DNA from: Psychromonas sp. CNPT3
Lineage (GTDB): Bacteria > Pseudomonadota > Gammaproteobacteria > Enterobacterales > Psychromonadaceae
Reading direction: 5' to 3'
NCBI RefSeq assembly: GCF_000153405.2
Contig: NC_020802.1
Coordinates: 119,883 to 143,882, forward strand
Length of the DNA stretch: 24,000 bases
Shown: positions 324 to 20,542 of the stretch, one piece after another
Layout of the letters: each line of letters begins with the position of its first letter
How positions within the stretch are numbered: position 1 is the stretch's first letter
Translations under genes and position numbers: made by a program
Notes under the pieces: generated by a model
What the model saw: only the letters and a program-made list of their open reading frames with translations
Told to the model about the DNA's origin: nothing
Databases searched by the model: none

Positions 324-1142
324 TTAAACCTCACTATTATCGTTTGCCTGTAAAATCAACTCTGCTAATTCTACAAAACCGTAGCCGCCATTTTTAGTGC
401 TGATGTAAGCTGGTTTGGCTTTAAATTGAGGTAAGATTGCTTCAATATTTTTAACACCAAAGGTGGTGGGTAGCCATGCAAACATGGTTTCATCATTGAG
501 TGAGTCACCAATATAGGCTATCTCATTAAGGCTCAGAGGTGGGCTCTGGCCATTATCAAACAAGTACTGCTCTGTAGATAAACGCTTATTGTGCTTTCCT
601 ACCCATGCGTTGAGGTGGATTGAGCTGAGGCTCGCATTGACTCTCTGGCCATTTACGGTTAATTTTTTTATTTTAGCAAGTAACTCATGGCTGAGTTTAT
701 CGCTAACTGGCTCACGATCTTGGCTTAAGTTAATGGCGACATCGCAGTAGCGAAACGGTTGATCATAAGCAAAGCGGATATCCGGATACTCAGTAAGCAC
801 CCTGTTTAAAAGTTTAATAAGCTCACCTTGCTGATGTTTCATGGTATCAAGGGGACTTGTTGTTTTCGTTACAAATTCAGCCTTCCTTTTTTGCATCCAA
901 AAAGCCCCATTTTCACCGATCACGCCATGTACTGGCCAAAGTTTTGCTATTTGATCGCACCAACCCGCGCAAGCACCGGTCACCGGTACTACTTTTATCC
1001 CCGCTAGGCTGAGCTTTTCAAGCGCAAGGAATGTTTGAGGGGGGAGTTTACCCTGCCACGTTAAGGTGTCATCAACATCGGTGAATAACCATTTAATGTT
1101 GCGTGCTTGGGTTATCGGTAGCTGAGCTAAAGGCTTAGGCAT
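324..1142 (-). CDS. HAD-superfamily hydrolase, subfamily IIB-like (Cof / mannosyl-3-phosphoglycerate phosphatase / sucrose-phosphatase-like), 272 aa
   Basis: HAD motif [10 protein letters not shown] (DxDxT, nt 1065-1079), motif II VVPVTG, motif III Lys in GKHNK, motif IV GDSLND. The large cap between motifs II and III fits type IIB. Its ATG (1142-1140) lies inside the end of ugpC (stop 1137-1135), minus-strand ATGCCTAA, an 8-nt overlap implying translational coupling. Confidence 0.8.
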
Positions 1143-3090: not shown

Positions 3091-3971
3091 TAGTACGCTA
3101 CCTTATTTTCGATATATTTGAATTGAACGACAGTTAAGAGTGCCACCATGATCATTAGGATCACCGATTGAGCCGCTGATGAGCCCAAATTCAGCCCGAT
3201 AAAACCATCGTTGTATACTTTGTAAACTAACGTGGATGTACTGTTGCCGGGCCCGCCTTGGGTCATTGCGTGAATGATGGCGAAGGTATCAAAAAATGCA
3301 TATACAAAATTAACCACTAATAAGAAAAAGCTGGTCGGTGATATAAGGGGGAAACTGATGCTAATAAAGCGTTTGATAGGGCCACTACCATCAATGGCCG
3401 CTGCTTCATGTAAAGACTTTGGAACAGATTGTAAGGCAGCTAAAAAAAACAAAAAGTTATAACTTATTTGTTTCCAAGTAGAGGCGATGATCACCATCCA
3501 CATGGCATGGCTACCATTGAGTATGGGATCCCAGTCAACCCCGAGCTTCCCTAATAATTCAGCAATAATCCCGATGGTGGGATCAAACAAAAACAACCAC
3601 AAAGAGCCGGCTACAACAGGTGCTACCGCATAAGGCCAAATTAAAAAAGTACGATAAAAGGTTGAGCCACGTACGATATGCTCGGCAAAGGCAGATAAGA
3701 GTAACGCACTTACCATGGCTAAAAAGGCAACGCTGATACTAAATTGCAATGTGGTGAATAGCGCATCTATATAGTTACTATCATTAAATAAATAAATAAA
3801 ATTTTCTAGCCCTACAAATTCACGGCTAAAGCCAAAGGGATCTTCTAATTGAAAAGATTGAAAAATGGCTTGGCCAGCAGGCCAAATAAAAAAAATAAAG
3901 GTGATCAATAATTGTGGCGTGATAAGCGCGATGGGTAACCATTTATTTTTAAAGACAACGTTCGATGACAT
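3090..3971 (-). CDS. ugpA: sn-glycerol-3-phosphate ABC transporter permease UgpA, 293 aa
   Basis: Multi-TM protein with EAA loop ([20 protein letters not shown]). It is the second gene of the ugpBAEC order. Confidence 0.8.
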
Positions 3972-4004
3972 ATTCGCTCTACCGTTTGCTCATAAGAGAA
4001 GAAA

Positions 4005-4034
4005 ATTGCCACCTCAGTAATAAAAAGTGGCAAT
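4005..4034 (-). terminator. Intercistronic hairpin / partial terminator between ugpB and ugpA
   Basis: Arms ATTGCCAC (4005-4012) and GTGGCAAT (4027-4034) form a perfect 8-bp stem with a 14-nt loop. On the minus strand it is followed by TTTCTTCTCTT (plus 3994-4004). Confidence 0.35.
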
Positions 4035-4114
4035 AAGATGGGGCGCTACAAATGAACAACAAGGATCTTTATTATTTTTTTGTCTGATACCGAGTTCTCC
4101 CCTTCGCTTGGACT

Positions 4115-5422
4115 CTATTTTTGAATGCGCTCAAAGCGTCTCAATTGCTCATTGCCGCGACGTACTGCATTATCGAGTGCAACTTTAGGGGAAATATTTC
4201 CCGCCCATACGCCTTCTAGCTCTTCGTTAATAATGTCACGTGTTTGTAGGAAATTACCAAAGCGAATACCTTTGGAATTCTTCGTTGGCTGGGTTGATGT
4301 CATTTGGATAACGGCCGTATCAGTACCTGGATGCGTTTTATAGAATCCTTGTTTCTGAGTTAGCGCATATGCTTTTTTGGTAATGGGTAAATAGCCTGTA
4401 AATTGATGCCAATCAGCTTGAACTTTGGCACTAGACAAGTAAGTAAAGAACTTAGCAACCCCTTTATACGTCTCACTTGAATGACCTCGTAGTACCCATA
4501 ATGACGCGCCACCAATGATCGTGTTTTGTGGTTTTGAGATGAGTGTTTCATCATATGGAAGTTCGGCAACGCCGACGTTAATACCTTTCATATTCTCCTG
4601 AATACCGGCAAGGCCTGCAGAGGATCCCATCGTCATTGCACATTTTTGAGTATAAAATAACGGCATGCCACTAGACTGACGGCCACCGTACTTAAATATT
4701 CCAGATTTAGACCATTTTTTAAGTTGTGCGATATGGTTTACAAAAGGGATGCTATTAAATGTGAAGGTCGTATCTAAACCATCAAATCCATTACTATTAT
4801 CAGCCATTGCAATATCGTTGCGCGCGCCAAAGTTTTCGATTTGCGTCCAAGATTGCCATGTGGTGCTAAAACCACACTCTGCGCCAGAAGCTAATAACTT
4901 ACGAGAAACATCACCCATCTCTTTCCATGTTTTTGGCGCAGATTTAATACCGGCCTTTGCAAACATATCTTTATTGTAATAGAGGACAGGTGTTGAGCTA
5001 TTAAACGGCATAGATAACAACTTGCCATCATTGGTTGTGTAATAACCGGTGACGCTTGCTAGATAATCATTGGCATCAAAAGGCTCGTTGGTATCTTCCA
5101 TTAGTTTATAAACAGGGTAAATAGCTTGTGTCGCACCCATCATCGTTGCCGTGCCTACCTCAAAAACCTGTACTATTGCTGGTTGTTGTTTTGCGCGAAA
5201 CGCAGCAATGGCACCTGTCATTGTTTCAGCGTAACTCCCTTTATAAATGGGTTTTATTTCATATTCAGATTGGGACGCATTAAAATCTGCGGCAATTTCA
5301 TTTACTTTCTGGCCTAAAGCGCCACCCATAGCATGCCACCATTCAACGTCAGTTTTAGCATGAACTTGTGCACTCAATAAAGTTGCCATTACAGCGAGTC
5401 CAGTGAGATGTTTAATAGACAT
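4115..5422 (-). CDS. ugpB: Periplasmic sn-glycerol-3-phosphate-binding protein UgpB, 435 aa
   Basis: Signal peptide MSIKHLTGLAVMATLLSAQVHA|KTD. Long blocks match E. coli UgpB as I remember it (FEVGTATMM, PFNSSTPVLYYNKD, PQNTIIGGASLWV, TGYLPITKKAY, RGNEQLRRFE). Confidence 0.93.
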   Translation of the reverse strand: MSIKHLTGLAVMATLLSAQVHAKTDVEWWHAMGGALGQKVNEIAADFNASQSEYEIKPIYKGSYAETMTGAIAAFRAKQQPAIVQVFEVGTATMMGATQAIYPVYKLMEDTNEPFDANDYLASVTGYYTTNDGKLLSMPFNSSTPVLYYNKDMFAKAGIKSAPKTWKEMGDVSRKLLASGAECGFSTTWQSWTQIENFGARNDIAMADNSNGFDGLDTTFTFNSIPFVNHIAQLKKWSKSGIFKYGGRQSSGMPLFYTQKCAMTMGSSAGLAGIQENMKGINVGVAELPYDETLISKPQNTIIGGASLWVLRGHSSETYKGVAKFFTYLSSAKVQADWHQFTGYLPITKKAYALTQKQGFYKTHPGTDTAVIQMTSTQPTKNSKGIRFGNFLQTRDIINEELEGVWAGNISPKVALDNAVRRGNEQLRRFERIQK

Positions 5423-5696
5423 ATGATTTCCTTTCTCGTCTTAATAGCAAAGGAACTAACAAAGTGATCCATCTTGCTTGTTAAAATTATCCCTACTTAC
5501 GTTGTGAGTTTTGAAGTGAGAACAACTATCTCCTGCAACTCACGCTTTATTAGTGCTAATTTTTCCTGCGCAATACATGACGCTTAATTAATTCCATTGC
5601 TATAAGTTATAATTTAAAGGAGAGAGGATGTTATGTATTCCCTCTCCATTGATTTGAATTTACAAATGCACAGTACATAAATGTTGTTACACTTTA

Positions 5697-5714
5697 GTGA
5701 CAGGTAGATGACAG
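5697..5714 (-). promoter_or_regulatory. Pho box (PhoB binding site), oriented toward ugpB
   Basis: The minus strand reads CTGTCAT-CTAC-CTGTCAC, two 7-bp direct repeats with a 4-bp spacer. This matches the E. coli Pho box consensus CTGTCATA(A/T)A(T/A)CTGTCA(C/T) in both heptamers. It lies in the ugpB/ugpQ divergent spacer, about 275 nt upstream of the ugpB ATG. Confidence 0.55.
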
Positions 5715-5825
5715 ATAAATGAAGCATGCTAAATCTGTCCTTTATTAAAATAATGTCATGCTGCAATAAAAGAGTCATAAAGGTTTGATAGGGTTGTTAA
5801 GTGCATTAGTGAACGAGGAGAGGTA

Positions 5826-6560
5826 ATGAACATAATGGCGCATCGAGGCGTTTCTAGTCTGGCCCCTGAAAATACTTTGGCAGCTTTTAATAAAGCCGCC
5901 GAGCTTGGTTGTGAGTGGATTGAAATTGATGTGCAACTGAGTTTTGATCAGGTGCCGGTGGTGATCCACGATCAATGCGTTGATCGTTGCTCAGATGGAA
6001 ATGGCGCCGTTTCTTCAATGACCTTAGCGAGTTTAAAATCACTGGATATGGGCCTGTGGTTTGCAGACACCTTTAAGAATGAGCGTATTGCTACTTTGCA
6101 AGAAACGTTATTATTGGCAGCCGATAAACATTTAAAAGTGAACATCGAAATAAAAATATATGCGCCAGATAATGTGTTTTTACTGTGTGAGAAAATCAAA
6201 AAAGTCATTATTGATTTAGAGGTTGATCCCTCACAAATATTATTTTCGAGCTTTAATGTTGAGGCATTAAAACTGATGCAATTTTGGCTACCACAAGTGC
6301 GTCGGGGGCTTCTGTTTAAAGTGATCCCCGATAATGCGTTGCTGTTATTAGCGCAAATAGACGCCTATAGTTTGCATTGTAATTACCTGTTTTTGACAGG
6401 GAAAAAGGCTAAATGGGTAAAACAACACGGCTATCAACTTTATTGTTACACCGCCGATGTACCGGAGCAGGTTTACCAATATTGGGAGTGGGGGGTAGAT
6501 ATGATGATCAGTAATGTGCCACAAGCATACCGGCACATCGATGATGAATTAAAGGCATAA
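5826..6560 (+). CDS. ugpQ: Glycerophosphodiester phosphodiesterase UgpQ/GDPD family, 244 aa
   Basis: GDPD motifs AHRGVSSLAPENT and IEIDVQLSFDQVPVVIHD. GGAGAGG Shine-Dalgarno lies just upstream. An alternative start at the second ATG (5835) is equally possible. Confidence 0.8.
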   Translation: MNIMAHRGVSSLAPENTLAAFNKAAELGCEWIEIDVQLSFDQVPVVIHDQCVDRCSDGNGAVSSMTLASLKSLDMGLWFADTFKNERIATLQETLLLAADKHLKVNIEIKIYAPDNVFLLCEKIKKVIIDLEVDPSQILFSSFNVEALKLMQFWLPQVRRGLLFKVIPDNALLLLAQIDAYSLHCNYLFLTGKKAKWVKQHGYQLYCYTADVPEQVYQYWEWGVDMMISNVPQAYRHIDDELKA

Positions 6561-6563
6561 GCT

Positions 6564-7832
6564 TTAAAGCGTATTTTTATATACTTTTTTATCTATTTCG
6601 TGCTTTTTCATCCGTAAATAAAGCTTTTTACGTGGAATTTGTAAATGCTCTGCAGCCTCTGAGACTCTCCCCGAAAACAAATACAAAGCATCTTCGATAC
6701 GTTTTTTCTCATATTCATCAACTAAAAGATCTAACGGGCTTTTACTATCACTAACGCTTAAGGTTTTATCTTTTTCAGAGAGTTTTACAATGCCGATGGC
6801 AAAGAGCTCTGCAATATTTCGTAATTCTCGAATATTTCCCGCCCACGGGTGAAGGCGCAGGGTATGTAAATAACTGGGCTCTATTTTAGGCACGCTTTTT
6901 TGTAATTTATGACAGCTCTTTTTCAAAAAATAATGAAATAAAGGCACGATATCATCTGGACGATAACGTAACGGGGGGATACTAAAATTCTGCTGGTTGA
7001 GAATATAATATAACTCAGGTAATAGCCTTTGTTTGGCAAGGTAATCTTCGGGTGAGTTATTTAAGATACAAATAAAACGCACATGTTTGTTTTGTTTTCG
7101 CTCTTGCATTAATAAATATTCTGCTAACCAATATTGTGCATCTTTATCTAAATATTCTGGCGCATTTAATATGATCGTCGCTTGAGTTAACTCGGTTAAG
7201 CTATCTTTTAGTTGTTGTTTCTTAGGCCTGCGTTTAGCGTCAATGTTGATAATAGGCGCTTTGCCTCGGGGGCTAAAATGATGCAGAAAACGGCAAATAT
7301 TGTGCCGACCCGTACCTGCCTCGCCCCACACACAAAGGTGGTTATCTAAGATCACAATTTCAGATAATAAGGATCGAACTTTACTTATCTGAGCGGATTG
7401 ACCGATTAACTCACGATGTAATGTTTGCGCAATATCATGTTTTTGTTGAAGGTGATGCTCTCTTCTTTTTAGCTGTTTAGTGATCAAACGCAGTAGCACC
7501 GAGGGCTCGATTGGCTTCTCTAAAAAATCACACGCACCTTGTTTTACAGCTTGTACTGCCATTGGAATATCACCATGGCCGGTGATCATTATAATGGGAA
7601 TAAAGGCATCAATTTTTTGAATTTTACTGAGGAGATCTAAGCCATTGAGCTGTGGCATATACATATCGGTAATAACAATGCCGGGCCAATCTTCTTTAAT
7701 GTAAGTGAGGGCGATGAGCGGATCTAATATTTTTTTGCAACGGTACCCTGAAAGTGAAAGTAAGTGCTGGTAGGCATCTAACACATCTTGGTCGTCATCA
7801 ACGAGTAAGATCTCTAAGTTATTATTTATCAT
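6564..7832 (-). CDS. pgtA: PgtA-like NtrC-family response regulator (receiver + degenerate AAA+ + Fis-type HTH), 422 aa from the MINNN start
   Basis: The receiver has the DDD acidic pocket, phospho-acceptor Asp in VITDMYMP (codon 7665-7667) and Lys in LEKP. The central domain aligns to NtrC (GEAGTGRH at 7302-7325; WAGNIRELRN sensor II). C-terminal HTH is GRVSEAAEHLQIPRKKLYLRMKK. I chose the start at 7832 because it overlaps the pgtB stop (minus strand ATGATAAATAA); the 22-codon upstream extension in the ORF track lies inside pgtB. Confidence 0.7.
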   Translation of the reverse strand: MINNNLEILLVDDDQDVLDAYQHLLSLSGYRCKKILDPLIALTYIKEDWPGIVITDMYMPQLNGLDLLSKIQKIDAFIPIIMITGHGDIPMAVQAVKQGACDFLEKPIEPSVLLRLITKQLKRREHHLQQKHDIAQTLHRELIGQSAQISKVRSLLSEIVILDNHLCVWGEAGTGRHNICRFLHHFSPRGKAPIINIDAKRRPKKQQLKDSLTELTQATIILNAPEYLDKDAQYWLAEYLLMQERKQNKHVRFICILNNSPEDYLAKQRLLPELYYILNQQNFSIPPLRYRPDDIVPLFHYFLKKSCHKLQKSVPKIEPSYLHTLRLHPWAGNIRELRNIAELFAIGIVKLSEKDKTLSVSDSKSPLDLLVDEYEKKRIEDALYLFSGRVSEAAEHLQIPRKKLYLRMKKHEIDKKVYKNTL

Positions 7833-10185
7833 AATGAGGTAGCTCCAGTATAAGCATGGCACCGCGTTGCAAGTTTGATGCGAGTAAAATTGAGCCATTG
7901 AAGCGTTTTATAATGCTTTGACTAATACTAAGCCCTAAACCTAAGCCCACTTCTTTTGTGGTGGTAAAGGGAGTGAATAAATGTTCGATAATACGTCCGT
8001 CAAAGCCATGACCCGAATCTTCAATTGCAATAATATAAAGCTTGCTCTGGGTGCTAAGAAGGCTGAGAGTGATGTCTTTTTTGGTGCATTTTGCAACCGC
8101 ATCAAATGCATTGACCATGATATTGATTAAGACTTGCTCTAATTGCACGTTATCTGCATATGTGAATAAAGGCTGCTTTATCTGGTTTTTTAAGCTAATA
8201 TTTTCTTGTTTGGCTTTACTGTTTAAAATAGAAAAGGTTTGTTCAATAACCGCGTTGATATCTGTTTTTTTCAATGCGATATCCGCCGGATGTTTTTTTG
8301 AAAAATGACGTAAGTTATTAATAATTTTATTCATTCTTAGGGTTAGTTTTTCAATTTTTCCTACGGCATTGTCAACTTCGTCATAGCGTTGCTGCGAAAC
8401 GGCTAAGGGGATACTAAAAAGATAACTGCTCATCGCATTAAGAGGCTGATTTAGCTCATGAGCCATACTTGTCATCGCTTGGCCGACCACGCTCATTTTA
8501 GCTGCTTGAATCAACTCTGTCTGGGTGTTTTTAAGGTCACTTTCTGTTTTCTTATGCTCTTCAATTTCATAGAGTAAACGCTGATTTGTTTCACTTAAAT
8601 GTAAGGTTTTTTGCGCAACATGGCGCTCTAAAAGTTTTTCTGTTTCGACGTGTTCACTGATATCTGTAATGGTGATAATAATTTTTGTTTGATGGCCTTG
8701 TTTAAAGCGCTGTAATTCTAAATTAATGTGTTGGTGTTGCTCCTCATTAAAAAGAGAAAGCACCACGCTGACTTCTCCGGTGTGATGGAGCTGGCTCCCC
8801 TCTTTAAACTGTATCTGGAGAGCATCTTGATTTTGATAAGAAAATTGCTGCCAATGCAATGCTGCATCATCTTCATCAAGGTGATGAAATAAGCGTTTTG
8901 CCGAAGGGTTTACCGACTCTATTGTCCCCTTTAAGTCACATGTAATAATACTTGCTGGCGTATTATTAATAAGATTAAGCGCATTGGTCCGTTCCATTTC
9001 ATGCATCTGTTGGCAGAATCGCTGTAAGCGCAAACTCAGTAAACCTATTTCGTCATGACCTCTGACATTATTAGGAAAATCAATGCGTCCATTATTAATG
9101 GCATCGAGATTGGCACTTAAATCGTTTAGGCGTTTAACGATACGGTGATTAACAAAGTACAGTGAAACAAAAATACTGATACAAAGCGATAAAGCAAAAC
9201 AAAAAATAAGGTATTGGCTACTTGAGGAGATCAACGTTTGCGTATCTGTTTGTACATTTTTCAATGTTTTTTCTGCACTGTGTACTCTTTTTTTAATTAA
9301 TAGATGCAGGATATTTAACTGTTTGAGTAAAGATAAGTGACTCTTTTGAATATTTAAGTCGAGATTTAAACGGTCGTTCAAAACGCGCTGATAAAGGGCG
9401 TTAGGGCGAATTAATTTACTGAGTTGATCAAATAATTGATGATAAGCGATAGTTGATGAATGGTGAAGCAGGGATCTGTTAGCTACTTCAATTTCATTTA
9501 TTTTATAATTTAAAACATGAAAAGCATTGATCACTTGATAGGGGTGTTGGATCAATTTTAAATCGGTAACTTGGCGTTGTAACTCATGGGTGTTGTTGAT
9601 CAGTTTTTGAATGGCAGAAAACTCTTGGTTGATCCGCTCTAAATTGTCATTACGATGATCAGATTTATTGGCAAGAGTGAGCTGCCACTGTAACTCTTCA
9701 CGTAACGGCTGTAATTCATCATTTATATCGTCTTGGATCCAGCGTATTTTATTTTCTATTTTGTTACTTTCTCTTTTCATATCGATACGTTGTAGCAGCT
9801 GTTTACTGAGAAAATTGATGTCTTTAGAGAGCGTCTTATAGGCGTTATTAAGTTGTGTGGCATCCGGAATGTCGGTAAGGATGGCATTGATCATGTGTAA
9901 TTGTGTATTTAATTGTATGGAGAGATCATTGTTATCTATTTTAGTACTGACATTTTGTATCTTGATGATCATACTTTGTAATTTTGCATTACTGCCTTCG
10001 AGCTCATAACTACTGTTTAGCGTCGGTACGCTTTGCTCGAGAATAGTGCTGACGTGTTTTTCAAGATTATTCCACGTACTTAATGCCATTAAACTAATAA
10101 TGACAATCAGTAATGGGCTACTGGCAAAAGACAGGATCAGTTTATAAGCGATAGTATTACTTTTGATTAATTTCATGTGCGTCAT
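7822..10185 (-). CDS. pgtB: PgtB-like membrane sensor histidine kinase, 787 aa
   Basis: TM1 is about aa 16-37, followed by a Q/L/N-rich predicted periplasmic region of about 287 aa, then TM2 at about aa 325-345. After that come a HAMP-like linker and a PAS-like region. H-box MAHELNQPLNAM (His codon 8458-8460), N-box NIMVNAFDA, G1 DSGHGF, G2 GLGLGLSIS. It overlaps pgtC by 29 nt and pgtA by 11 nt. Confidence 0.7.
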   Translation of the reverse strand: MTHMKLIKSNTIAYKLILSFASSPLLIVIISLMALSTWNNLEKHVSTILEQSVPTLNSSYELEGSNAKLQSMIIKIQNVSTKIDNNDLSIQLNTQLHMINAILTDIPDATQLNNAYKTLSKDINFLSKQLLQRIDMKRESNKIENKIRWIQDDINDELQPLREELQWQLTLANKSDHRNDNLERINQEFSAIQKLINNTHELQRQVTDLKLIQHPYQVINAFHVLNYKINEIEVANRSLLHHSSTIAYHQLFDQLSKLIRPNALYQRVLNDRLNLDLNIQKSHLSLLKQLNILHLLIKKRVHSAEKTLKNVQTDTQTLISSSSQYLIFCFALSLCISIFVSLYFVNHRIVKRLNDLSANLDAINNGRIDFPNNVRGHDEIGLLSLRLQRFCQQMHEMERTNALNLINNTPASIITCDLKGTIESVNPSAKRLFHHLDEDDAALHWQQFSYQNQDALQIQFKEGSQLHHTGEVSVVLSLFNEEQHQHINLELQRFKQGHQTKIIITITDISEHVETEKLLERHVAQKTLHLSETNQRLLYEIEEHKKTESDLKNTQTELIQAAKMSVVGQAMTSMAHELNQPLNAMSSYLFSIPLAVSQQRYDEVDNAVGKIEKLTLRMNKIINNLRHFSKKHPADIALKKTDINAVIEQTFSILNSKAKQENISLKNQIKQPLFTYADNVQLEQVLINIMVNAFDAVAKCTKKDITLSLLSTQSKLYIIAIEDSGHGFDGRIIEHLFTPFTTTKEVGLGLGLSISQSIIKRFNGSILLASNLQRGAMLILELPHYDK

Positions 10186-11443
10186 TTTTTTTGCTAAGTT
10201 GTGAGATGATATTGTTACTATCTTGGATTTGTTTGCTGAGTAAATTTTTCCATTGTAAAATTCGGCCTATTTTTTGAGGGTTCATTTGTTGTGAATTTTG
10301 ATAATAAGTGCTTTCCTCTTGTACTTCTTGCTCTGTGATTGGCAAGGTAAATAACTGATGCTTCGCCTGTTGTATTTTCTTGAGGTGACGCGCGGAATGC
10401 TTATACTTTTTTTGTGCGGTAATAATATTGAGCCAAGCATCTTGTAGCTGTGGCAGTTGCTCACTGATGGCTAAATCAAAGAGACGATTAATAATAAATT
10501 CCCGTGAGATCAGTAAATCTTTATCTAAAAAAAGATTTTTTTGGTGCAAAGGAAGGGCTTTATTAACCGAGTGTTTTGCAAAAGGCGTTTGTATTAAATT
10601 CGACTGTACGTTGTTAGACAATATATATTTAATAAACTTTAATGCCAGTTCGTTTTGTTGCTGTTTTTTAATAATACCGATATAAAGAGGCATCAGTGCC
10701 ACATTGTTTAATGCACTAGAGTCTAAAAAAGGAATGTCGTTTAAATTAACGGCATAGCTTTCTATCACCGCCCCTAAACCGATTTGTCCCCTTGAAATAG
10801 ACTCGCTAACACTAAAACTTCGAGAAGAGATAGTTGCTAAGTTTGCCCCCATATTGAGAATTAAGCGCCAGCCTTTTTGCCAACCATAATGTTGTAAAAT
10901 ACTCTCAATCATTATCTGTGTGGTGCCTGAGCGAGTTGGTGTTGTCATGGTTAGGTGATGAAAATAAATCGCGTTAGTGAGATCTTGCCAGTTGTGCGGA
11001 ATAGGTAAGTTATTGCGTGTTAAGTAGTCGCTATTCCATAATAAAACGGTATTTGAGTAACCAATAATGGCCACTTTTTGGGTGTCTACCAGTGAATGTT
11101 TACTTATCCAGGTTGGAGGCGAAATACTTAAAGGTAGCGTTGCTAATGAATTACTTTCAATTAATTGATTCATTAAAAAAGGGGAAGAGGAGATCACTAA
11201 GCAAATATTATTAATATAATCTTGTCTTAATAGCTTAATACTTGCTTGAGAGCGCCGATAAATTATTTTTATATTAATATCGGGGTTTTTACTTTTAAAG
11301 CCTTTTAATATGATTTGCAGTGGTTTTTCAGATAAAGAGGTCAGAATGATCATATTCTCTTTTTCTTCTCGGCTTTGTGCCGGCAATGACATCAATATTA
11401 TGAGCACAGTAAAAAAACATAAGAAATAGGGTTTGGTCGTCAT
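10157..11443 (-). CDS. pgtC: PgtC-like periplasmic solute-binding-fold regulatory protein, 428 aa
   Basis: N-terminal signal-like segment FLCFFTVLIILMSLPAQS. The body resembles Fe(III)/FbpA-like family-1 binding proteins (IILTSLSEKP..., TPTRSGTTQ). No ABC permease or ATPase partner is present. Instead it is first in an operon with the kinase and regulator, as in the Salmonella pgt locus. Confidence 0.6.
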   Translation of the reverse strand: MTTKPYFLCFFTVLIILMSLPAQSREEKENMIILTSLSEKPLQIILKGFKSKNPDINIKIIYRRSQASIKLLRQDYINNICLVISSSPFLMNQLIESNSLATLPLSISPPTWISKHSLVDTQKVAIIGYSNTVLLWNSDYLTRNNLPIPHNWQDLTNAIYFHHLTMTTPTRSGTTQIMIESILQHYGWQKGWRLILNMGANLATISSRSFSVSESISRGQIGLGAVIESYAVNLNDIPFLDSSALNNVALMPLYIGIIKKQQQNELALKFIKYILSNNVQSNLIQTPFAKHSVNKALPLHQKNLFLDKDLLISREFIINRLFDLAISEQLPQLQDAWLNIITAQKKYKHSARHLKKIQQAKHQLFTLPITEQEVQEESTYYQNSQQMNPQKIGRILQWKNLLSKQIQDSNNIISQLSKKNDAHEINQK

Positions 11444-11504
11444 TTTTATCTTCCTTTATTGAGCCCTGTTTACACAGAAACAGACAAATCCATTTAAAAT
11501 ATAC

Positions 11505-11516
11505 GACGCTATTTAT
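11505..11516 (+). repeat. Copy 1 of exact 12-nt direct repeat GACGCTATTTAT in the pgtC/pgtP spacer
   Basis: Read directly from the sequence; identical to 11853-11864. A third copy of the core sits at 11661-11668 (CTATTTAT); extended to CTATTTATTTT (11661-11671) it also matches copy 1's continuation at 11509-11519. Confidence 0.9.
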
Positions 11517-11852
11517 TTTTCGTGTTTGCTTTGATGCTTTTTAGAGCTACCAGTGGGCTGAGATAGGGATCAGAAAGCGATGTTTAAGTCCGCATTTTAA
11601 TCTTTTGATAACGGCCATTTAGCGCATTTTATGACGAAGAATAAGAAGCTAATGATAGCACTATTTATTTTATGATAGTGGCCTTTAAAAAGCACTTTTG
11701 AAAGAAGCTATAAATGAATTTGAGTCAAAACTGTCCCTTTTTAACACTTTCTTTCTGATTGTAAACCCTCGTGTTATGGGCGATTTATCACTATTGTATA
11801 GAAGGGTTTGTGCATAAAACGTCTAATATCACCTGAGTATAAAAGTGAAAGT

Positions 11853-11864
11853 GACGCTATTTAT
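11853..11864 (+). repeat. Copy 2 of exact 12-nt direct repeat GACGCTATTTAT
   Basis: Read directly from the sequence; lies 348 nt downstream of copy 1. Confidence 0.9.
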
Positions 11865-12151
11865 AATGCGCCGCAAAGACGTTTATGCGCTTTTGTGTGA
11901 TTCTAATCAAAAACTAGGCAGATACAGATATATTTTTTTATTTGCTGAGCAGTCAATATTGACCCATTAATTTCCTTATATGTTTTAAATCCCCATTGTT
12001 TATTATATTTTTTTTACTTTTATGGCTTAATTTTAAGTATTTGAGTTATTTTTATCTCAAAATTGCTTTTTTGCCATATTTATTACCTTCCCTGAATATC
12101 CCCTCATCTATTGAACTGCGTAATAACGCAAAAATTAAAATGAGGTGAAAG

Positions 12152-13492
12152 ATGTTTAATTTTTTTAAAACACGAGCAGATCTTCCCGTGCAAGGAACGA
12201 CGGAAGAGATCCAAAAGAAATATAAATCTTATCAATGGCAAGTTTTTCTTGGATTGGTATTTGGTTACGCCATTTTTTATGTGGTGCGATTAAGTTTAGG
12301 TGTGGTTAAAAAGCCGATGTTAGATGCTGACATCGTTACTTTGGCTGAGCTAGGTTTTATGGGCTCGGCTTTTTTCTTTACGTATGCTATCGGTAAGTTC
12401 TCCAACGGTTTGTTGTCTGATTATGCGAATATCGGCAGATTTATGTCGGTCTCTCTTTTCCTTTCAGGTCTCGCCGCAATTGGTATGGGCATGAACACCG
12501 CTAGTATGTTCTTCATTTTATTATGGGGCTTAAATGGTTGGTTTCAGTCAGTTGGCTCAGCGCCATCATGTGTGTCTTTGTTTCAGTGGTTCTCTCCTAA
12601 ACAACGTGGTAGTCGATATGCGCTTTGGGCCGGCTCTCGTAATATAGGTGAAGCCATTACGTGGATCTTAACGGCTTCTTTAGTGAGCTATTATGGTTGG
12701 CAAGCCGGTTTTATCGGCGCGGGTATTGCGGCTGTTTGTGCATCGATTTGTATGTTCAAAGTTTTAAAAGATCGCCCTCAAACTTATGGTTTACCAGATG
12801 CAGCAACGGCTTTTGGTGAAGACTCAGAAGATAAAGGTAAGAAATTAGACCCACAAGCAATTCGTAAAGCGCAAATGTTTATCTTAAAACAACCGACTTT
12901 ATGGCTGATTGCTGCTGCCTGTGCTTTTATGTATATCTCTCGTTATGCAATGTCTTCTTGGGCTGTTCTGTACCTTCAAGAAACCAAAGGATATAGCTTA
13001 TTAGATGCGGGTTTTGCCATGTCAGCTTACCCAATAGCGGGCCTTTGTGGCGCAATCTTATCCGGTATCATCTCTGATAAAATCTTCAAATCTAACCGTC
13101 ATATTCCTACACTTATGTATGGTATTGCCAACATTGCGGGCATGTGTTTACTCTTTTTTGGACCAACGAGTCACATGGTCGATAGTATTGCTTTGACTCT
13201 GATTGGTTTTGCTATTGGTGGGCTTGTTGTGTTTCTTGCGGGCTTAACGGCATGTGATTTAATGCCTCAAAAAGCAGTGGGCGCGGTGAAAGGCTTTATT
13301 GGACTTTGTGCCTATATTGCCGTCTCGATTCAAGAGCTTGTTTCTGCTTCGTTGATTGATGTGACTATGGTTAATGGCGTTGAAATTTATGACTTTAGCC
13401 GAGCGCAGTATTTTTGGTTGGCGTCTGCAGTGATCTCATTATTCCTTGCCTTAACCGTGTGGAATGCTAAAAAAATCACCATGGACGAATAG
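12152..13492 (+). CDS. pgtP: Phosphoglycerate/PEP:phosphate antiporter PgtP-like MFS transporter (organophosphate:Pi antiporter family), 446 aa
   Basis: About 12 TM segments with a central hydrophilic loop (DRPQTYGLPDAATAFGEDSEDKGKK), which gives a GlpT/UhpT/PgtP-family look. GAGGTGA Shine-Dalgarno is present. The assignment to PgtP rather than GlpT/UhpT rests on the divergent pgtCBA-type regulatory operon. Confidence 0.75.
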   Translation: MFNFFKTRADLPVQGTTEEIQKKYKSYQWQVFLGLVFGYAIFYVVRLSLGVVKKPMLDADIVTLAELGFMGSAFFFTYAIGKFSNGLLSDYANIGRFMSVSLFLSGLAAIGMGMNTASMFFILLWGLNGWFQSVGSAPSCVSLFQWFSPKQRGSRYALWAGSRNIGEAITWILTASLVSYYGWQAGFIGAGIAAVCASICMFKVLKDRPQTYGLPDAATAFGEDSEDKGKKLDPQAIRKAQMFILKQPTLWLIAAACAFMYISRYAMSSWAVLYLQETKGYSLLDAGFAMSAYPIAGLCGAILSGIISDKIFKSNRHIPTLMYGIANIAGMCLLFFGPTSHMVDSIALTLIGFAIGGLVVFLAGLTACDLMPQKAVGAVKGFIGLCAYIAVSIQELVSASLIDVTMVNGVEIYDFSRAQYFWLASAVISLFLALTVWNAKKITMDE

Positions 13493-13502
13493 CATTATTA
13501 GC

Positions 13503-13524
13503 AAGGTGGGTTACGACTCACCTT
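13503..13524 (+). terminator. Hairpin between pgtP and pyk (weak terminator or attenuator)
   Basis: AAGGTGGGT / ACTCACCTT forms a 9-bp stem with one G-U pair and a TACG tetraloop. It is followed by TTCCCCTTTCC, a poor U-tract. Confidence 0.35.
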
Positions 13525-13550
13525 TTCCCCTTTCCAAAATAGAGTAACTT

Positions 13551-15008
13551 ATGTGTAAAACAAAAATAATAGCAACACTTGGACCGGCGAGTCAGTCGGA
13601 GGATATGATCCGTAAGTTGATCCTTGCGGGCGTTAATATCGTGCGCCTTAATTTCTCACACGGAAGTGCACAAGAGCATATAGATTGTGCAAAATTAGTC
13701 AGAAGAATTTCTGCAGAGTTAGGTAAATATGTCGGTGTTTTAGTTGATTTACAAGGGCCTAAAATTCGCATAGCTTGTTTTAAAAATGATGTGGTTGAGC
13801 TTGTTGCTGGTCAACGTTTTGTGTTGGATGCGAAGCTTGCTGAATTTGACGGCAGCGTAAGCGCTGTGGGTTTAGGTTATCCGGATCTTATTGCTGACCT
13901 AAATATCGATGACGTTTTATTGTTAGATGACGGGCGTATACATTTACAAGTGACAGAAGTTAGTAAAGAAGAGCTTAAGGTTACGACCAAAGTGCTTAAT
14001 AGTGGAAAATTATCAAACAGAAAAGGCATTAATTTATTAGGAGGCGGATTGTCAGCGCCTGCATTAACGCCTAAAGATATTGAAGATATGTCCACCGCAG
14101 CCCTTTTAAATGCAGATTTTTTGGCTATTTCATTCCCGCGTAATGCACAAGACATTCATTATGCTCGTAAAAAAGCAAAGGAAGCGGGCTGTGATGTTCA
14201 AATTATAGCAAAAGTTGAGCGCGCTGAAGTAGTTGCTTCGGAGAAGGCGATGGATGAAATGATCCAAGCCGCTGATATTATTATGGTCGCTCGTGGCGAT
14301 CTTGGGGTTGAAATTGGAGATGCACGTTTAGCGAGAATACAAAAACAATTGATATCTCGTTCAAAGTACTTTGCAAAGCCGGTGATCACGGCGACACAAA
14401 TGATGGAATCTATGATTGAGAATCCAATGCCAACTCGCGCAGAGGTGCTTGATATTGCGAATGCAGTAATGGATGGCTCGGATGCCATTATGCTTTCTGC
14501 GGAGTCGGCTGCTGGGCGTTACCCTGTAGAAGCAGTACAAGCGATGGTGCGCATTGCGGCTGGTGCAGAAGAGCCTAATGTTGTTATGCATAAGTGTTGG
14601 GCTGACATTGAGCATCTGTGTCAGGATCCTGGGCAAAGCTTTGCGCTATCGGCGATGCTTTCTGCCTCTCAAGATGATACGCCTGTTGGCATGATCATTA
14701 TCAGCGAAAAAGGTCAAACACCTCGCATCATGTCCCGCTGTCAGAGTTCAGTATATATTTGGGCAGTATCGGATGATATTGAGTTATTAAGAGAATTTTC
14801 AATATTAAGAGGGGTAAAAGCCGTTTATTTTGATTATAAAAAATATTCTCAAGAAGATTTATTCCCTGCTATCTTGGCGCATCTCAAAGCGGATATTAGC
14901 GACAATAACTTAGCTCAGGTGCTCTTTACGCAATGCCAAAACCTCGAAAAGGTGGGTGATTTCAATGTTTGTAGAATGATTTCCTTATCAGAAAAAAATC
15001 ATGTTTAA
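13551..15008 (+). CDS. pyk: Pyruvate kinase, PykA-like (type II), 485 aa
   Basis: Strong PK motifs: TKIIATLGPAS, NFSHGS, DLQGPKIR, MVARGDLGVEIG, ITATQMMESMI, PTRAEV, DAIMLSAESAAG. Overall collinearity with E. coli PykA as I remember it through the catalytic domains. Confidence 0.92.
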   Translation: MCKTKIIATLGPASQSEDMIRKLILAGVNIVRLNFSHGSAQEHIDCAKLVRRISAELGKYVGVLVDLQGPKIRIACFKNDVVELVAGQRFVLDAKLAEFDGSVSAVGLGYPDLIADLNIDDVLLLDDGRIHLQVTEVSKEELKVTTKVLNSGKLSNRKGINLLGGGLSAPALTPKDIEDMSTAALLNADFLAISFPRNAQDIHYARKKAKEAGCDVQIIAKVERAEVVASEKAMDEMIQAADIIMVARGDLGVEIGDARLARIQKQLISRSKYFAKPVITATQMMESMIENPMPTRAEVLDIANAVMDGSDAIMLSAESAAGRYPVEAVQAMVRIAAGAEEPNVVMHKCWADIEHLCQDPGQSFALSAMLSASQDDTPVGMIIISEKGQTPRIMSRCQSSVYIWAVSDDIELLREFSILRGVKAVYFDYKKYSQEDLFPAILAHLKADISDNNLAQVLFTQCQNLEKVGDFNVCRMISLSEKNHV

Positions 15009-16968: not shown

Positions 16969-16990
16969 TCAGAACCATACTGCGCAAAAA

Positions 16991-17015
16991 AACTCTCCAC
17001 AAGGAGAGTTTTTTT
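16991..17015 (+). terminator. Rho-independent terminator after the YfcC-family gene
   Basis: AACTCTCC (16991-16998), loop ACAA, then GGAGAGTT (17003-17010) running into TTTTTTT. An A-tract upstream (16986-16990) makes it potentially bidirectional. Confidence 0.8.
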
Positions 17016-17042
17016 GTTTGTGGCAGTATCCCTTTTTATATT

Positions 17043-17066
17043 GAAAGTTATGTCGAAAGTCATGTC
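17043..17066 (+). repeat. Tandem 12-bp direct repeat GAAAGTTATGTC|GAAAGTCATGTC upstream of yjjI
   Basis: Read directly; 11 of 12 positions identical and the copies abut. It lies about 91-114 nt upstream of the yjjI ATG. Confidence 0.85.
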
Positions 17067-17086
17067 AAAAATGGAAAAGAGTCTTG

Positions 17087-17105
17087 GCGTTAATTTCACT
17101 AACGC
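17087..17105. promoter_or_regulatory. Perfect dyad GCGTTA-N7-TAACGC (contains a T-N11-A core) upstream of yjjI; candidate regulator operator
   Basis: Both arms read directly from the sequence. It sits 18 nt upstream of a TACAAT -10-like hexamer (17123-17128) that has no good -35. The function is inferred only. Confidence 0.3.
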
Positions 17106-17156
17106 TATCAACCATGCAGGCATACAATAAAGGCTTACTATTTAAAGGGATATAAA

Positions 17157-18683
17157 ATGAGCCAGCAACGTATCTACAATATTATTAGCAACGCTAATTT
17201 ATCGGTAAAACAAAAAACACAATATTTAGCATTAGAGGCCGAAGCGAGTCTCCCTTACCTTGAAATTAATCAAAGCGTACAAGATGCGCTCGATGCGGGT
17301 ATTTTATGTGATATGTTTGAAGGTCACGCGCCTTTTAAAGCGCGTTATGTTTTACCCGATTATGCTAAATTTTTAGCGCAGGGCTCAACTTATCTGGAAT
17401 TAGAGGCGGCGACAAATTTTGATGAAGCCTTAAATTTACTGACTATTTTATATCACCATGTCCCCTCTGTTACTACGATCCCCGTTTATTTAGGTCAGCT
17501 TGATAGTGTCCTTTTACCTTATGTTGGCAGCTTAACGGATGATCAAATCTATCAAAAATTAAAATTATTTTGGATAATGCTTGATCGCACGCTTCCCGAT
17601 GCCTTTATGCACGTGAATATTGGGCCAACAGATAATATTATCTGCCGCACTATTTTACGTATCGATGCGCAGCTAAAGCAAGTGGCACCCAATTTAACGT
17701 TTATGTACGATGCAAAGGTGACGCCGGATGATTTATTGCGTCAAGTGACTCAAAATATCTGTGAATGTAGTAAACCCCATATTGCAAATTACCCTCTGCA
17801 TGCTAGCGCGTTTGACGAAAGCGGGTTTGGTATCGTGAGTTGCTATAACGCGTTGCCATTAGGTGGAGGCGCGAATACGTTAGTGCGCATGAATTTAAAA
17901 GAAGTGGCTAAAAAATCTAAGAATAAAGAGAATTTCTTTAATATCCAGTTACCTAAATACTGCGCCCTGATGTTTGATTTAATTGATGTGCGCAGTACTT
18001 TTCTGCATGAAAAATCACATTTTTTCAGTGAATTTTTAGTGCAAGAGGGTTTAATTCATGAAGATAGATTTGCGCCTATGTTTGGTATTTATGCCATGGC
18101 CGAGGCGGTAGAGATCCTTTTGCAAAAAGATAATATAAAAAGTTGTTATGGCTTAGATAGCGTCGCTAATACATTATCGTATGAAATTTCTAAAACGCTT
18201 TCCGAAATAGTGACGTCGACCAAGGTAAAGTATGGCTATCATGGACGCGCGTTATTGCATGCACAGGGCGGTATAAGTTTAGATCATGAGTGTACACCTG
18301 GCGTGCGTATCGCGTATGGGAAAGAGCCAGATCCCATTGCCTATATTCAAGCTACCGCGCCACATCATCAATATTATCCCTCTGGTATCAGTGATATTTT
18401 AAGTATTGATGAGACGGTAAAATCAAATCCTGAAGCGATGTTTGCGCTTGCTAAAGGGGCGCTAAAAATGGGATATCGAGAGTTTACCGCTAATATTTCA
18501 AGTAATGATTTAGTGCGAGTGACAGGCTACATGGTTAAACGCTCATCGATGGCTAAATTTGCTGAGCAAGGCTCGCGTACTAATACCACTTTTTTAGGAT
18601 CTGAAGCCTTACAAAATACAAACATTTCAAAACGTAGGGCGCGCGTTATTAGTTTAGAAAGCATGCCTGTCGTCATTAAATAG
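17157..18683 (+). CDS. yjjI: YjjI-family glycyl radical enzyme (small GRE, DUF3029-type), 508 aa
   Basis: C-terminal glycine-radical fingerprint NDLVRVTGYMVKR (Gly457 codon 18525-18527). Candidate thiyl-radical Cys in GFGIVSCYNALPLGGG (Cys229 codon 17841-17843). It is immediately followed by a GRE activase. Size and N-terminal sequence style match the E. coli YjjI family as I recall it. Confidence 0.8.
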   Translation: MSQQRIYNIISNANLSVKQKTQYLALEAEASLPYLEINQSVQDALDAGILCDMFEGHAPFKARYVLPDYAKFLAQGSTYLELEAATNFDEALNLLTILYHHVPSVTTIPVYLGQLDSVLLPYVGSLTDDQIYQKLKLFWIMLDRTLPDAFMHVNIGPTDNIICRTILRIDAQLKQVAPNLTFMYDAKVTPDDLLRQVTQNICECSKPHIANYPLHASAFDESGFGIVSCYNALPLGGGANTLVRMNLKEVAKKSKNKENFFNIQLPKYCALMFDLIDVRSTFLHEKSHFFSEFLVQEGLIHEDRFAPMFGIYAMAEAVEILLQKDNIKSCYGLDSVANTLSYEISKTLSEIVTSTKVKYGYHGRALLHAQGGISLDHECTPGVRIAYGKEPDPIAYIQATAPHHQYYPSGISDILSIDETVKSNPEAMFALAKGALKMGYREFTANISSNDLVRVTGYMVKRSSMAKFAEQGSRTNTTFLGSEALQNTNISKRRARVISLESMPVVIK

Positions 18684-18695
18684 AGATGATCTGCG

Positions 18696-19562
18696 TTGAT
18701 TAATTTTGAAAAAACAGCCTTGATCCATAAAATAATTTATTTTTCTTGTGTCGATGGACCAGGAAATCGAGCGGTTATTTTTTTACAAGGCTGTAATTAT
18801 CAGTGTAAAACGTGTCATAACCCACAAACCATTAATATTTGCGATCATTGCGCCTTATGCGTTGCACCTTGTCCTGCGCAGGCTTTAACAGTGGTTTCCG
18901 GTAAGGTGGTGTGGGACAGTCAATTATGTATCGGTTGTGATAACTGTATTGATATTTGTCCGACGCAATCGAGTCCTAAAGTGCGTCGCCACTCAGTGCG
19001 CCAGCTCCTTGAAAGGTTAAAAGAGAAACAGATGTTTTTAAGTGGTGTGACGCTTTCAGGTGGAGAGTCAACGTTGCAACTGCCTTTTATCATTGAATTG
19101 TTTAAAGCCATTAAATCGTGCCCTGAATTATCGCATTTGACGTGTTTTATTGACAGTAATGGCAGTTTATCGGCGCAGGGTTGGGATCGCGTGATGCCGT
19201 ATCTTGATGGCGCCATGATTGATTTAAAAGCGTGGCAAAATGAAACACATTTATGGCTGGTAGGACGTCAAAACCACCGTGTTTTTAAAAGCATCGCGCA
19301 GCTTGATAAAGCCGGTAAATTATATGAAGTACGCTTGCTACATATCCCCAATAAAACAGATTTATTAACGGAAATAGAATCACTTGCAAGGTATTTAAAA
19401 CAATTATCGAAGGGCGTTATGATTCGTATCAATGCCTTTCAACATAGTGGTGTGGTGGGAGAGGCTTTGACTTGGGATTGTGCCACTCAACAGCAAGTGC
19501 AGGATTTTCAGCAACAACTTGAGCTATATACTGGCAGAGATGTTTGTATCCCGTGTTTATAG
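18696..19562 (+). CDS. yjjW: YjjW-type glycyl-radical enzyme activase (radical SAM, with two extra ferredoxin-like 4Fe-4S motifs), 288 aa
   Basis: Activase N-terminal motif SCVDGPGNR. Radical SAM CNYQCKTC (CX3CX2C, 18792-18815). Two CX2CX2CX3CP motifs, CDHCALCVAPCP and CIGCDNCIDICP (18840-18959). SAM-binding-like SGGEST. The start must be TTG at 18696, because an in-frame TGA lies at 18687-18689 and the next ATG is at codon 113. Confidence 0.85.
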   Translation: MINFEKTALIHKIIYFSCVDGPGNRAVIFLQGCNYQCKTCHNPQTINICDHCALCVAPCPAQALTVVSGKVVWDSQLCIGCDNCIDICPTQSSPKVRRHSVRQLLERLKEKQMFLSGVTLSGGESTLQLPFIIELFKAIKSCPELSHLTCFIDSNGSLSAQGWDRVMPYLDGAMIDLKAWQNETHLWLVGRQNHRVFKSIAQLDKAGKLYEVRLLHIPNKTDLLTEIESLARYLKQLSKGVMIRINAFQHSGVVGEALTWDCATQQQVQDFQQQLELYTGRDVCIPCL

Positions 19563-19612: not shown

Positions 19613-20542
19613 TCAGAGAATGGGCGAAATTAAAGTTGTTTTTATATTTTGTAACAGCCAATTTAATGCAGGATCATTACTCGCTAATTGATTGAAAACC
19701 ATACTATAGACGACTTTCCCACTTTCAAAGGGTAATTTTTTTGCAATTAAGCCTACGCTTTGTTGACTCCTTTCAAACCATTTTTTAGAGCAGGTAAATA
19801 AGAAGTGTGAATGTTGGCAGGTCGCGGCTGCACTACCAAAATCAGCCACTGATATCGCTATTTTACGGGCCTGGTATTGCTGTTTTAATAATTGTTCAAA
19901 ATAGGGTTGCTGTAACTCTTTATCAAAAATCGCAATATGTTTATAGGCTAAATAGTTTTCAATCGTTAAGGTTTTATCTGCGAGAGGGTGATTGCTTTGC
20001 ATGACGCAGATCATTTCGTCATCAAGGATAGTTTGCCAGCATAATTGCTTTTCATTGCTGGGTGGCTGGCTTTTATCATGTGGCAAAATGATCACATCAA
20101 CCTGTCCACTTAAGAGTGCGTCAAAGCCTCGTTGGGATCGTGAATGTATCTCAAGTTGGGCGTTCGGTGCTTGTTTCTCTATAAGCGTACAGAGGCTTGG
20201 CGCAAAAATATCGAAGGTGCTAGCGCGCATTGACAATCTGAACGTCCCTTGAAATTCCTCTGCATTAAAATCACGTTGATGTATTAATGTATTCATATTA
20301 TTTAAAATAATATGCACAGAAGGGGCGATGTGTAGCGCATAAGGCGTGGCAATAAGTTGTCTACCTTCACGGTAAAATAACTCGTCATTTAATAACGTGC
20401 GGAGCTGTGCGAGTGTTTTACTCACACTCGAGGGCGTGATGCATAATATAGAGGCACTTTTACTGACGCTATGCGTGCAGAGCATGACATGTAGGGTGCT
20501 AAGGTGCTTAAAGCTGAACCGTGAGAGTTGCATGAGATCCAT
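19613..20542 (-). CDS. LysR-family transcriptional regulator, 309 aa
   Basis: N-terminal wHTH (LSTLHVMLCTHSVSKSASILCITPSSVSKTLAQLRTLLNDELFYREGRQLIATPYA) followed by a LysR substrate-binding-type C-terminal domain of typical length. Confidence 0.85.
   Translation of the reverse strand: MDLMQLSRFSFKHLSTLHVMLCTHSVSKSASILCITPSSVSKTLAQLRTLLNDELFYREGRQLIATPYALHIAPSVHIILNNMNTLIHQRDFNAEEFQGTFRLSMRASTFDIFAPSLCTLIEKQAPNAQLEIHSRSQRGFDALLSGQVDVIILPHDKSQPPSNEKQLCWQTILDDEMICVMQSNHPLADKTLTIENYLAYKHIAIFDKELQQPYFEQLLKQQYQARKIAISVADFGSAAATCQHSHFLFTCSKKWFERSQQSVGLIAKKLPFESGKVVYSMVFNQLASNDPALNWLLQNIKTTLISPIL

Follow-up and report, generated by a model that had tools for sequence, protein, structure and literature searches.

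A YjjI/YjjW glycyl radical enzyme cassette in Psychromonas sp. CNPT3: an orphan family with a conserved LysR-type neighbour and a possible link to nucleosides

The YjjI/YjjW pair is among the last glycyl radical systems of Escherichia coli K-12 without a reaction. A June 2026 review of glycyl radical enzymes (GREs) divides the superfamily into two InterPro families, the anaerobic ribonucleotide reductases (RNRs) and the enzymes resembling pyruvate formate-lyase (PFL), and recognizes seven functional classes; the YjjI family is missing from this two-division classification and is not mentioned (PMC13450708). The 2026 RefSeq label in E. coli K-12 is “DUF3029 domain-containing protein YjjI”. The searchable literature on YjjI, YjjW, DUF3029 and HI0521 consists only of expression tables, genome notes and a single computational prediction. 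E. coli yjjI is directly activated by FNR (PMC3688515), a dependence that is taken here from the literature only, and anaerobic induction in Yersinia intermedia reaches 4.3-fold for yjjI and 2.1-fold for yjjW (PMC3792023). The computational prediction, from 2011, placed yjjI in nitrogen metabolism on the strength of narG co-expression in E. coli and Salmonella (PMC3228777). Here we analyze a yjjI-yjjW pair in a stretch of 24,000 nucleotides from Psychromonas sp. CNPT3 (contig NC_020802.1 of assembly GCF_000153405.2, positions 119,883 to 143,882 of the forward strand), hereafter the window, which had previously been read from its sequence alone (the original prediction). The locus is probably best explained as a two-gene GRE cassette with a regulator of its own. 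What is new is that the carriers beside the pair are not conserved, that a LysR-type gene is, that a dyad recurs in the promoter region, and that distant homologues are linked to nucleoside genes. The following features of the pair were located:

17157..18683, + strand: yjjI, encoding a YjjI-family glycyl radical enzyme of 508 amino acids
17841-17843, + strand: Cys229 codon TGC (SCYN motif, residues 228-231), predicted thiyl-radical residue
18525-18527, + strand: Gly457 codon GGC (RVTGY, residues 454-458), predicted glycyl-radical site
18696..19562, + strand: yjjW, encoding a YjjW-family radical-SAM (S-adenosylmethionine) activase of 288 amino acids, TTG start
18792..18815, + strand: CX3CX2C motif CNYQCKTC (C33, C37, C40), predicted SAM-binding [4Fe-4S] cluster (PF04055, PF13353)
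18840..18959, + strand: ferredoxin-like insert with two CX2CX2CX3CP motifs (C49-C59, C78-C88; Fer4_10, Fer4_7, Fer4_9)

The original prediction had assigned the two genes, separated by 12 nt, to the YjjI and YjjW families and had named models for checking this, and both exceed the curated cut-offs of those models. YjjI scores 746.7 bits against TIGR04040 (cut-off 498.3, E = 9.8e-225) and 736.9 bits against PF11230, formerly DUF3029, covering positions 1-485 of 485; YjjW scores 411.2 bits against TIGR04041 (cut-off 250.2, E = 2e-123). Every open reading frame (ORF), motif and codon coordinate of the pair proved exact on re-checking. Its account of the neighbours also holds, with a carrier of the PF03606/YfcC-like kind, a LysR regulator in convergent orientation and the TRAP genes DctMQP. 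The statement that the family has no assigned substrate or reaction also stands, since the PDB, the searchable literature and the E. coli K-12 RefSeq annotation of 2026 give none. The YjjI sequence matches PCNPT3_00530 of Psychromonas sp. CNPT3, a protein with an existing YjjI-family label in UniRef, at 100% identity, and E. coli YjjI at 60% over 500 residues. What was correctly spotted and read is an oxygen-sensitive radical enzyme with its activase, already on record in the databases and belonging to a family known as an orphan. That family is compact, comprising 464 clusters at 50% identity (E <= 1e-3) out of 1.84 billion representatives. Plasmid carriage was considered and rejected: the 16 “plasmid” matches listed have record lengths of 0.4-4.9 Mb and come mostly from E. 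coli, Proteus and Vibrio. They appear to be chromosomes or chromids under a wrong label, and thus give no sign of real plasmid mobility.

The Pfam models PFL-like (PF02901) and Gly_radical (PF01228) have no match to YjjI at E <= 1e-3, the NrdD models of NCBIfam have no match, and Pfam NRDD (PF13597) reaches a sub-threshold 18.8 bits against a cut-off of 26.2. No YjjI-family structure is present in the PDB, where a sequence search with YjjI gave zero matches even at E <= 10. An AlphaFold2 model built from 22 diverse homologues (predicted local distance difference test, pLDDT, 90.6; predicted template-modelling score, pTM, 0.90) was compared with the PDB by Foldseek and returned glycyl radical enzymes only. 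The best matches are class III RNRs (9dau_A, E = 7.8e-17, template-modelling (TM) score 0.76), followed by proline-derivative dehydratases, PflD, glycerol/propanediol dehydratases, PFL and benzylsuccinate synthase. The GRE barrel was recovered with probability 1.00 to NrdD, PFL, glycerol dehydratase, HypD and others. In the model, Cys229 lies at the tip of a hairpin between strands 224-227 and 231-234, and Gly457 at the tip of a hairpin between strands 452-454 and 459-461. Model and profile alignment agree in placing the Gly and the Cys on the two radical loops. Of the grounds on which the original prediction was to be refuted, the two that sequence and model can address, absence of a family match and a Gly or Cys off these loops, therefore do not apply. 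YjjI is accordingly modelled as a minimal ten-stranded-barrel enzyme of 508 residues with Gly457 and Cys229 tipping two opposed hairpin loops.

The family alignment is consistent with these assignments. Cys229, which stands within GIVSCYNALPLGGG (a motif starting at residue 225), is the sole conserved cysteine and is present in all 144 of 144 members; Asn231 is kept in 142/144. The glycine motif R[VIL][TSAC]G[YF] is kept in 139/144 full-length members. The five others were rejected as non-glycine radical variants, having low-complexity C-termini and looking like frameshifts or chimeras. When aligned to E. coli PflB by hhalign (70.8% probability), S228-C229 fall on C418-C419 and G457 on G734, with R244 on the pyruvate-binding R435 and F150 on W333. 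Alignment to E. coli NrdD has 90.8% probability over YjjI residues 11-431; C229 falls in the NrdD Cys-loop region, and the conserved YjjI motif PRY..LPDY occupies the segment of the second catalytic cysteine of NrdD, Cys175. Invariant polar residues in both subgroups of the family are R63, Y64, D116, D143, H152, N179, K206, N211, S228, N231, R244, E297, H368, Q370 and R384, and their being common to both subgroups argues for a common or similar substrate.

YjjW, from its motifs, is a radical-SAM activase with one predicted SAM-binding and two predicted auxiliary [4Fe-4S] clusters. The N-terminal GRE-activase motif SCVDGPGNR begins at residue 17, and all three cluster motifs are present in 73/78 YjjW orthologues. 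The activases of HypD, CutC, HPAD and PFL are matched more weakly, in each case under the cut-off. The gene follows yjjI in 78/81 loci of the window's own clade and in 74/96 loci of the distant set (both sampled as described below). Beside archaeal and other distant YjjI homologues, the activases of six loci are 247-251 residues long and lack the two-cluster ferredoxin-like insert, so the auxiliary clusters are not universal in the family. Five contigs with the Haemophilus-like layout have recQ after yjjI and lack yjjW, nupC and deoD, all three of which are present in four sister contigs. The pattern resembles a presence/absence polymorphism by which the enzyme is deprived of its activase.

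Conserved neighbours of the pair were sought in an overall sample of 160 loci and 14 look-ups. For the window's own clade, ORFs were called and clustered in 81 loci, namely the window and 80 loci fetched from species genomes of Vibrio, Aliivibrio, Photobacterium, Enterovibrio, Grimontia, Shewanella, Psychromonas and a few Enterobacterales. Besides the activase, a single gene is conserved as a partner of the pair in this clade, and all other neighbours change:

19613..20542, - strand: convergent LysR-type regulator of 309 amino acids, proposed dedicated regulator of yjjIW (PF00126 and PF03466)

Orthologues of this gene lie directly after yjjW in 54/81 loci and within seven genes in 63/81, and are 48-70% identical to the window copy, as against about 25% for unrelated LysR genes. 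The original prediction had listed the regulator without giving it weight, together with the carriers on either side. The cross-genome comparison bears out the regulator but not the carriers: the window's YfcC-like carrier is a singleton among the 81 loci, and its TRAP genes recur in one locus only. Other immediate neighbours are unrelated housekeeping genes, such as those for an L,D-transpeptidase, a chemoreceptor, a methyltransferase, LysE, lipoyl synthase, FolE, MoeAB, SpoU, HMG-CoA reductase and ProAB. The closest solved relatives of the regulator are of the DntR/NahR type (1utb, E = 3e-21), which at E ~1e-21 are too distant to suggest an effector; its match to YidZ is weak (94.5 bits, cut-off 314). 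Two further arrangements were observed around the pair. In 16 Shewanella loci an ExaC-type acetaldehyde dehydrogenase gene stands directly upstream of yjjI, and beyond it come genes for an AcuI-type acrylyl-CoA reductase, a flavocytochrome c and a second, unrelated LysR protein, an order conserved in the genus. A gene for a CRP/FNR-family regulator (cNMP_binding and HTH_Crp_2) adjoins yjjI-yjjW in four metagenome loci, in two of which (L127 and L130) it is directly upstream of yjjI and divergent; this represents another route to anaerobic control than the LysR module.

The region upstream of yjjI contains sites through which such a regulator could act:

16977..17029, + strand: terminator hairpin flanked by runs of A and T, downstream of the YfcC-like carrier gene
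17063..17077, + strand: site 1, dyad TGTCAAAAATGGAAA, two mismatches, T-N11-A type, proposed LysR recognition site
17094..17108, + strand: site 2, weaker related dyad TTTCACTAACGCTAT, overlapping the -35 region, proposed activation site
17123..17128, + strand: probable -10 box TACAAT, aligned with the conserved TAgAAT block

The hairpin has a folding energy of -28.2 kcal/mol (z = -7.09, 200 shuffles), in keeping with the terminator originally placed between the carrier gene and yjjI, so that yjjI forms its own transcription unit with a promoter insulated from the carrier gene. When the DNA upstream of yjjI is aligned for 20 loci from nine genera, three blocks are conserved within otherwise unalignable DNA: an ATTTCC-N5-GGAAAT dyad, a TTTCAC(T)..GGAAAT element about 31 bp downstream, and a TAgAAT -10 box. 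The dyad was counted as TTTCC-N5-GGAAA with at most one mismatch, 40-200 nt upstream of yjjI. It is found in 63/81 loci, with 86 occurrences upstream of yjjI against 49 in the remaining 1.54 Mb, an enrichment of more than 200-fold (86 versus about 0.4 expected), mostly 88-105 nt before the ATG (about 95). Among loci having the LysR orthologue, 56 of 62 carry it with no more than one mismatch; the Enterobacterales loci and E. coli have neither the dyad (three or more mismatches) nor the LysR regulator. Site 1 of the window is centred at about -65 from the inferred transcription start, and site 2 lies 31 bp downstream of it. Two dyads about three helical turns apart, near -65 and -35, constitute the classical layout of a LysR-activated promoter, and the yjjI promoter appears to have this layout. 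In this clade the convergent LysR protein probably activates yjjI through the two putative dyads.

Other forms of control were considered and rejected. Autoregulation of the LysR gene is not indicated, as no matching dyad precedes the regulator gene itself and the dyad is not enriched in that position. FNR control in the clade was dropped as well: upstream of the window's yjjI there is no TTGAT-N4-ATCAA with up to two mismatches, and in the 81 loci no FNR box occurs at a conserved position upstream of yjjI. A scan of the whole window with Rfam found no RNA element. A 12-nt tandem duplication with one mismatch (GAAAGTTATGTC GAAAGTCATGTC, 17043-17066) overlaps the left dyad arm and may explain why that arm is degenerate in CNPT3.

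By the mechanism common to the superfamily, YjjW would cleave SAM under anoxia and take a hydrogen from Gly457; the stored glycyl radical would then generate a thiyl radical on Cys229, which would abstract a hydrogen atom from the substrate. The chemistry that could follow is constrained by the presence of Ser in place of the second Cys of PFL, the lack of a counterpart to the reducing Cys of NrdD, and an Asn two residues after the catalytic Cys. Lacking a second cysteine, YjjI is, from its predicted active site, unlikely to catalyze PFL-type C-C cleavage or canonical ribonucleotide reduction. GRE 1,2-eliminases carry a Cys-x-Glu motif on the Cys loop, and the Cys-Tyr-Asn of YjjI argues against their standard set-up. 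Near-invariant Arg244 aligns with Arg435 of PFL, which binds a carboxylate. The reaction of YjjI is most likely redox-neutral, a rearrangement or an elimination, and its substrate a metabolite that is small, polar and anionic.

More distant homologues point towards a class of substrate. Among ten distant representatives (33-42% identity) the activase is the only constant partner, and nucleoside genes were found in three of these contexts, for which reason metagenome contigs were scanned with an alignment led by that subgroup. The resulting distant set comprises 99 clustered metagenome loci, with homologues at about 34% identity. Genes for nucleoside uptake or catabolism lie within -4 to +5 genes in 22/70 distant loci, corresponding to 17/58 distinct gene orders, and often stand directly after yjjW on the same strand. 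They encode NupC, PfkB kinases, a nucleoside hydrolase resembling RihB/UriH, a purine nucleoside phosphorylase of the DeoD type (414.9 bits), and a transport system in which a Bmp/PnrA-type binding protein comes with two permeases and a double ABC ATPase. Such genes make up about 7% of ORFs in the distant flanks, where the rough genome expectation is below 1% (an estimate rather than a computed control). One recurrent layout runs RNase T2, pgk, fba, heptosyltransferase, yczE, yjjI, yjjW, nupC, deoD and the genes for ribosomal proteins L11 and L1; we take it to be that of Haemophilus influenzae HI0516-HI0526, of which the position of HI0523 between HI0524 and HI0521 is the confirmed part. Nearer the window, yjjI of E. 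coli and the deoCABD genes diverge from each other, a Moellerella locus has nupC immediately upstream, and in five Vibrionaceae loci nupC is 5-7 kb away. Nucleoside-derived ribosyl or pentose(-phosphate) compounds are tentatively our leading substrate class. In eight loci of one clade the pair is followed by ruvA, ruvB, spoIID, queA and tgt, which is probably inherited synteny; queA and tgt also encode ribosyl-transfer enzymes.

Several observations weigh against this account of the locus. The nucleoside link is absent from the window and from nearly all 81 own-clade loci, as well as from archaeal and other distant contexts, in which the activase alone is constant; PfkB and ABC proteins form broad families, and the background rate is itself an estimate. 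The pocket residues of YjjI are drawn from profile alignments at low identity (13-21%). As for control, the window's dyads are degenerate (two and four mismatches), and six loci without a LysR orthologue in the fetched sequence nevertheless carry the dyad with up to two mismatches, which makes the link between regulator and site correlative. The searchable literature holds no experiment on a glycyl radical or an activity for any YjjI member.

Other readings of the enzyme have to be set against the same evidence. The original prediction had suggested, as an inference it called weak itself, that a small organic acid or amine is imported by the adjacent YfcC-family carrier or TRAP transporter as substrate. 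The carriers are physically close in the window, and the alignment of Arg244 with the carboxylate-binding Arg of PFL would suit an anionic compound; but neither carrier is a conserved neighbour (YfcC is found once in 81 loci and TRAP is shared with one locus), a strong terminator separates the carrier gene from yjjI, and the TRAP genes lie past the regulator on the other strand, so that we consider such a substrate very unlikely. An aldehyde-forming 1,2-eliminase, modelled on choline trimethylamine-lyase or isethionate sulfite-lyase, would take a compound of the X-CH2-CHOH type as substrate and set free acetaldehyde or a similar carbonyl. Up to 18 Shewanella loci with the same-strand ExaC-type acetaldehyde dehydrogenase upstream (958.9 bits, cut-off 900) speak for it, as does the adjacency of E. 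coli yjjI to deoC, another source of acetaldehyde. The Shewanella synteny represents one evolutionary event, however, no microcompartment or aldehyde-handling genes occur elsewhere near the cassette, and the residues after the Cys are Tyr-Asn; even though eliminases form the largest GRE class (PMC13450708), this alternative appears improbable.

The likeness to class III RNRs raises the possibility of a stripped-down ribonucleotide or ribonucleoside reductase with formate as reductant. These enzymes are the nearest fold and profile matches, and the weak Pfam NRDD match and the linkage to nucleoside genes would be in line with it. That NRDD match is under its cut-off, though, YjjI has one conserved Cys and neither a counterpart of NrdD C175 nor an ATP cone or Zn ribbon, and carriers of YjjI such as E. 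coli also keep NrdDG; we give such a reductase little credence. A role in anaerobic nitrogen or nitrosative metabolism seems slighter still. No nitrogen-oxide genes stand beside the cassette in about 180 loci and the marine loci have no conserved FNR box; on the other side are the weak similarity of the regulator to YidZ and the occurrence of yjjI in a conserved bicluster with nitrate-respiration genes and FNR and NarL-type motifs (PMC3228777), a co-expression that shared FNR control alone can produce. Finally, the degenerate promoter dyads and the tandem duplication abutting the first of them might mark the yjjIW pair as an inactive relic in the CNPT3 genome. Both ORFs are intact, however, as is the regulator, and the invariant family residues and the three cluster motifs are kept, which leaves this reading extremely unlikely.

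The left two-thirds of the window is an organophosphate-scavenging region, formed by two further systems. At 6564-15008 lies a Pgt-like system for organophosphate uptake. Its sigma-54 response regulator is PgtA-like (443.5 bits, under the cut-off of 650), and with it come a kinase resembling PgtB, a binding protein resembling PgtC and an MFS antiporter of the PgtP/GlpT family. The next gene on this strand encodes pyruvate kinase, and this pairing suggests phosphoenolpyruvate/phosphoglycerate uptake feeding straight into pyruvate. At 324-6560, an ABC transporter of Ugp-like type, made up of a binding protein, two permeases and a MalK-type ATPase, is accompanied by a HAD hydrolase and a divergent glycerophosphodiester phosphodiesterase.

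A Psychromonas orthologue is in itself unsurprising, and the window leaves the orphan reaction unsolved. The conserved LysR gene and its operator nevertheless offer a handle that could be converted into a reporter for the inducing metabolite, and the recurrent link to nucleoside genes across unrelated lineages narrows the panel of substrates. Were the substrate derived from nucleosides, YjjI would represent a new GRE reaction class and a missing anaerobic step in a central pathway; E. coli, Haemophilus and Vibrio would gain an oxygen-independent step in nucleoside catabolism, and marine gammaproteobacteria would be using a dedicated LysR sensor of a nucleoside-derived metabolite. The full proposal is that YjjI forms a third deep GRE branch, outside the RNR and PFL-like families, with a reaction beyond the seven recognized classes, namely RNR-like hydrogen abstraction with rearrangement or elimination on a free nucleoside-derived ribosyl or pentose-phosphate compound, switched on in marine gammaproteobacteria by LysR. 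Taken as a whole, it is doubtful.

Compared with known systems, YjjI finds its best structure and profile match in class III RNR (NrdD), with which it shares the barrel and the Cys and Gly finger loops. It is about 200 residues shorter than NrdD (712 amino acids) and differs in having no ATP cone, no Zn ribbon (there are no CX2C pairs before the Gly loop) and no Cys at the position of C175, and its activase is of the long, ferredoxin-insert type rather than NrdG-like. With PFL and PFL-like GREs (PflD, YbiW and others) it shares the fold at TM scores of 0.67-0.74 and the alignment of C229, G457 and R244 with C419, G734 and R435, and YjjW resembles the activases of HypD, CutC and HPAD. YjjI is, however, 250-300 residues shorter than these enzymes (about 250 shorter than PflB, with 760 amino acids), Ser228 takes the place of C418 so that the Cys-Cys pair of the formate-lyases is absent, and Cys-Tyr-Asn stands where GRE 1,2-eliminases have Cys-x-Glu. 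The promoter resembles those of LysR-type activators, with recognition near -65 and activation near -35, in having two dyads, a weak -35 and a good -10, whereas the presumed regulator is convergent with its target rather than divergent. In E. coli, yjjI lacks both a neighbouring LysR gene and the TTTCC-N5-GGAAA dyad, is FNR-activated and is divergent to deoCABD. Yet the E. coli pair (b4380/b4379) is orthologous to that of CNPT3 and of like length class, with SCYN and RVTGY in both, and its YjjW is likewise tightly coupled and carries two ferredoxin-like motifs.

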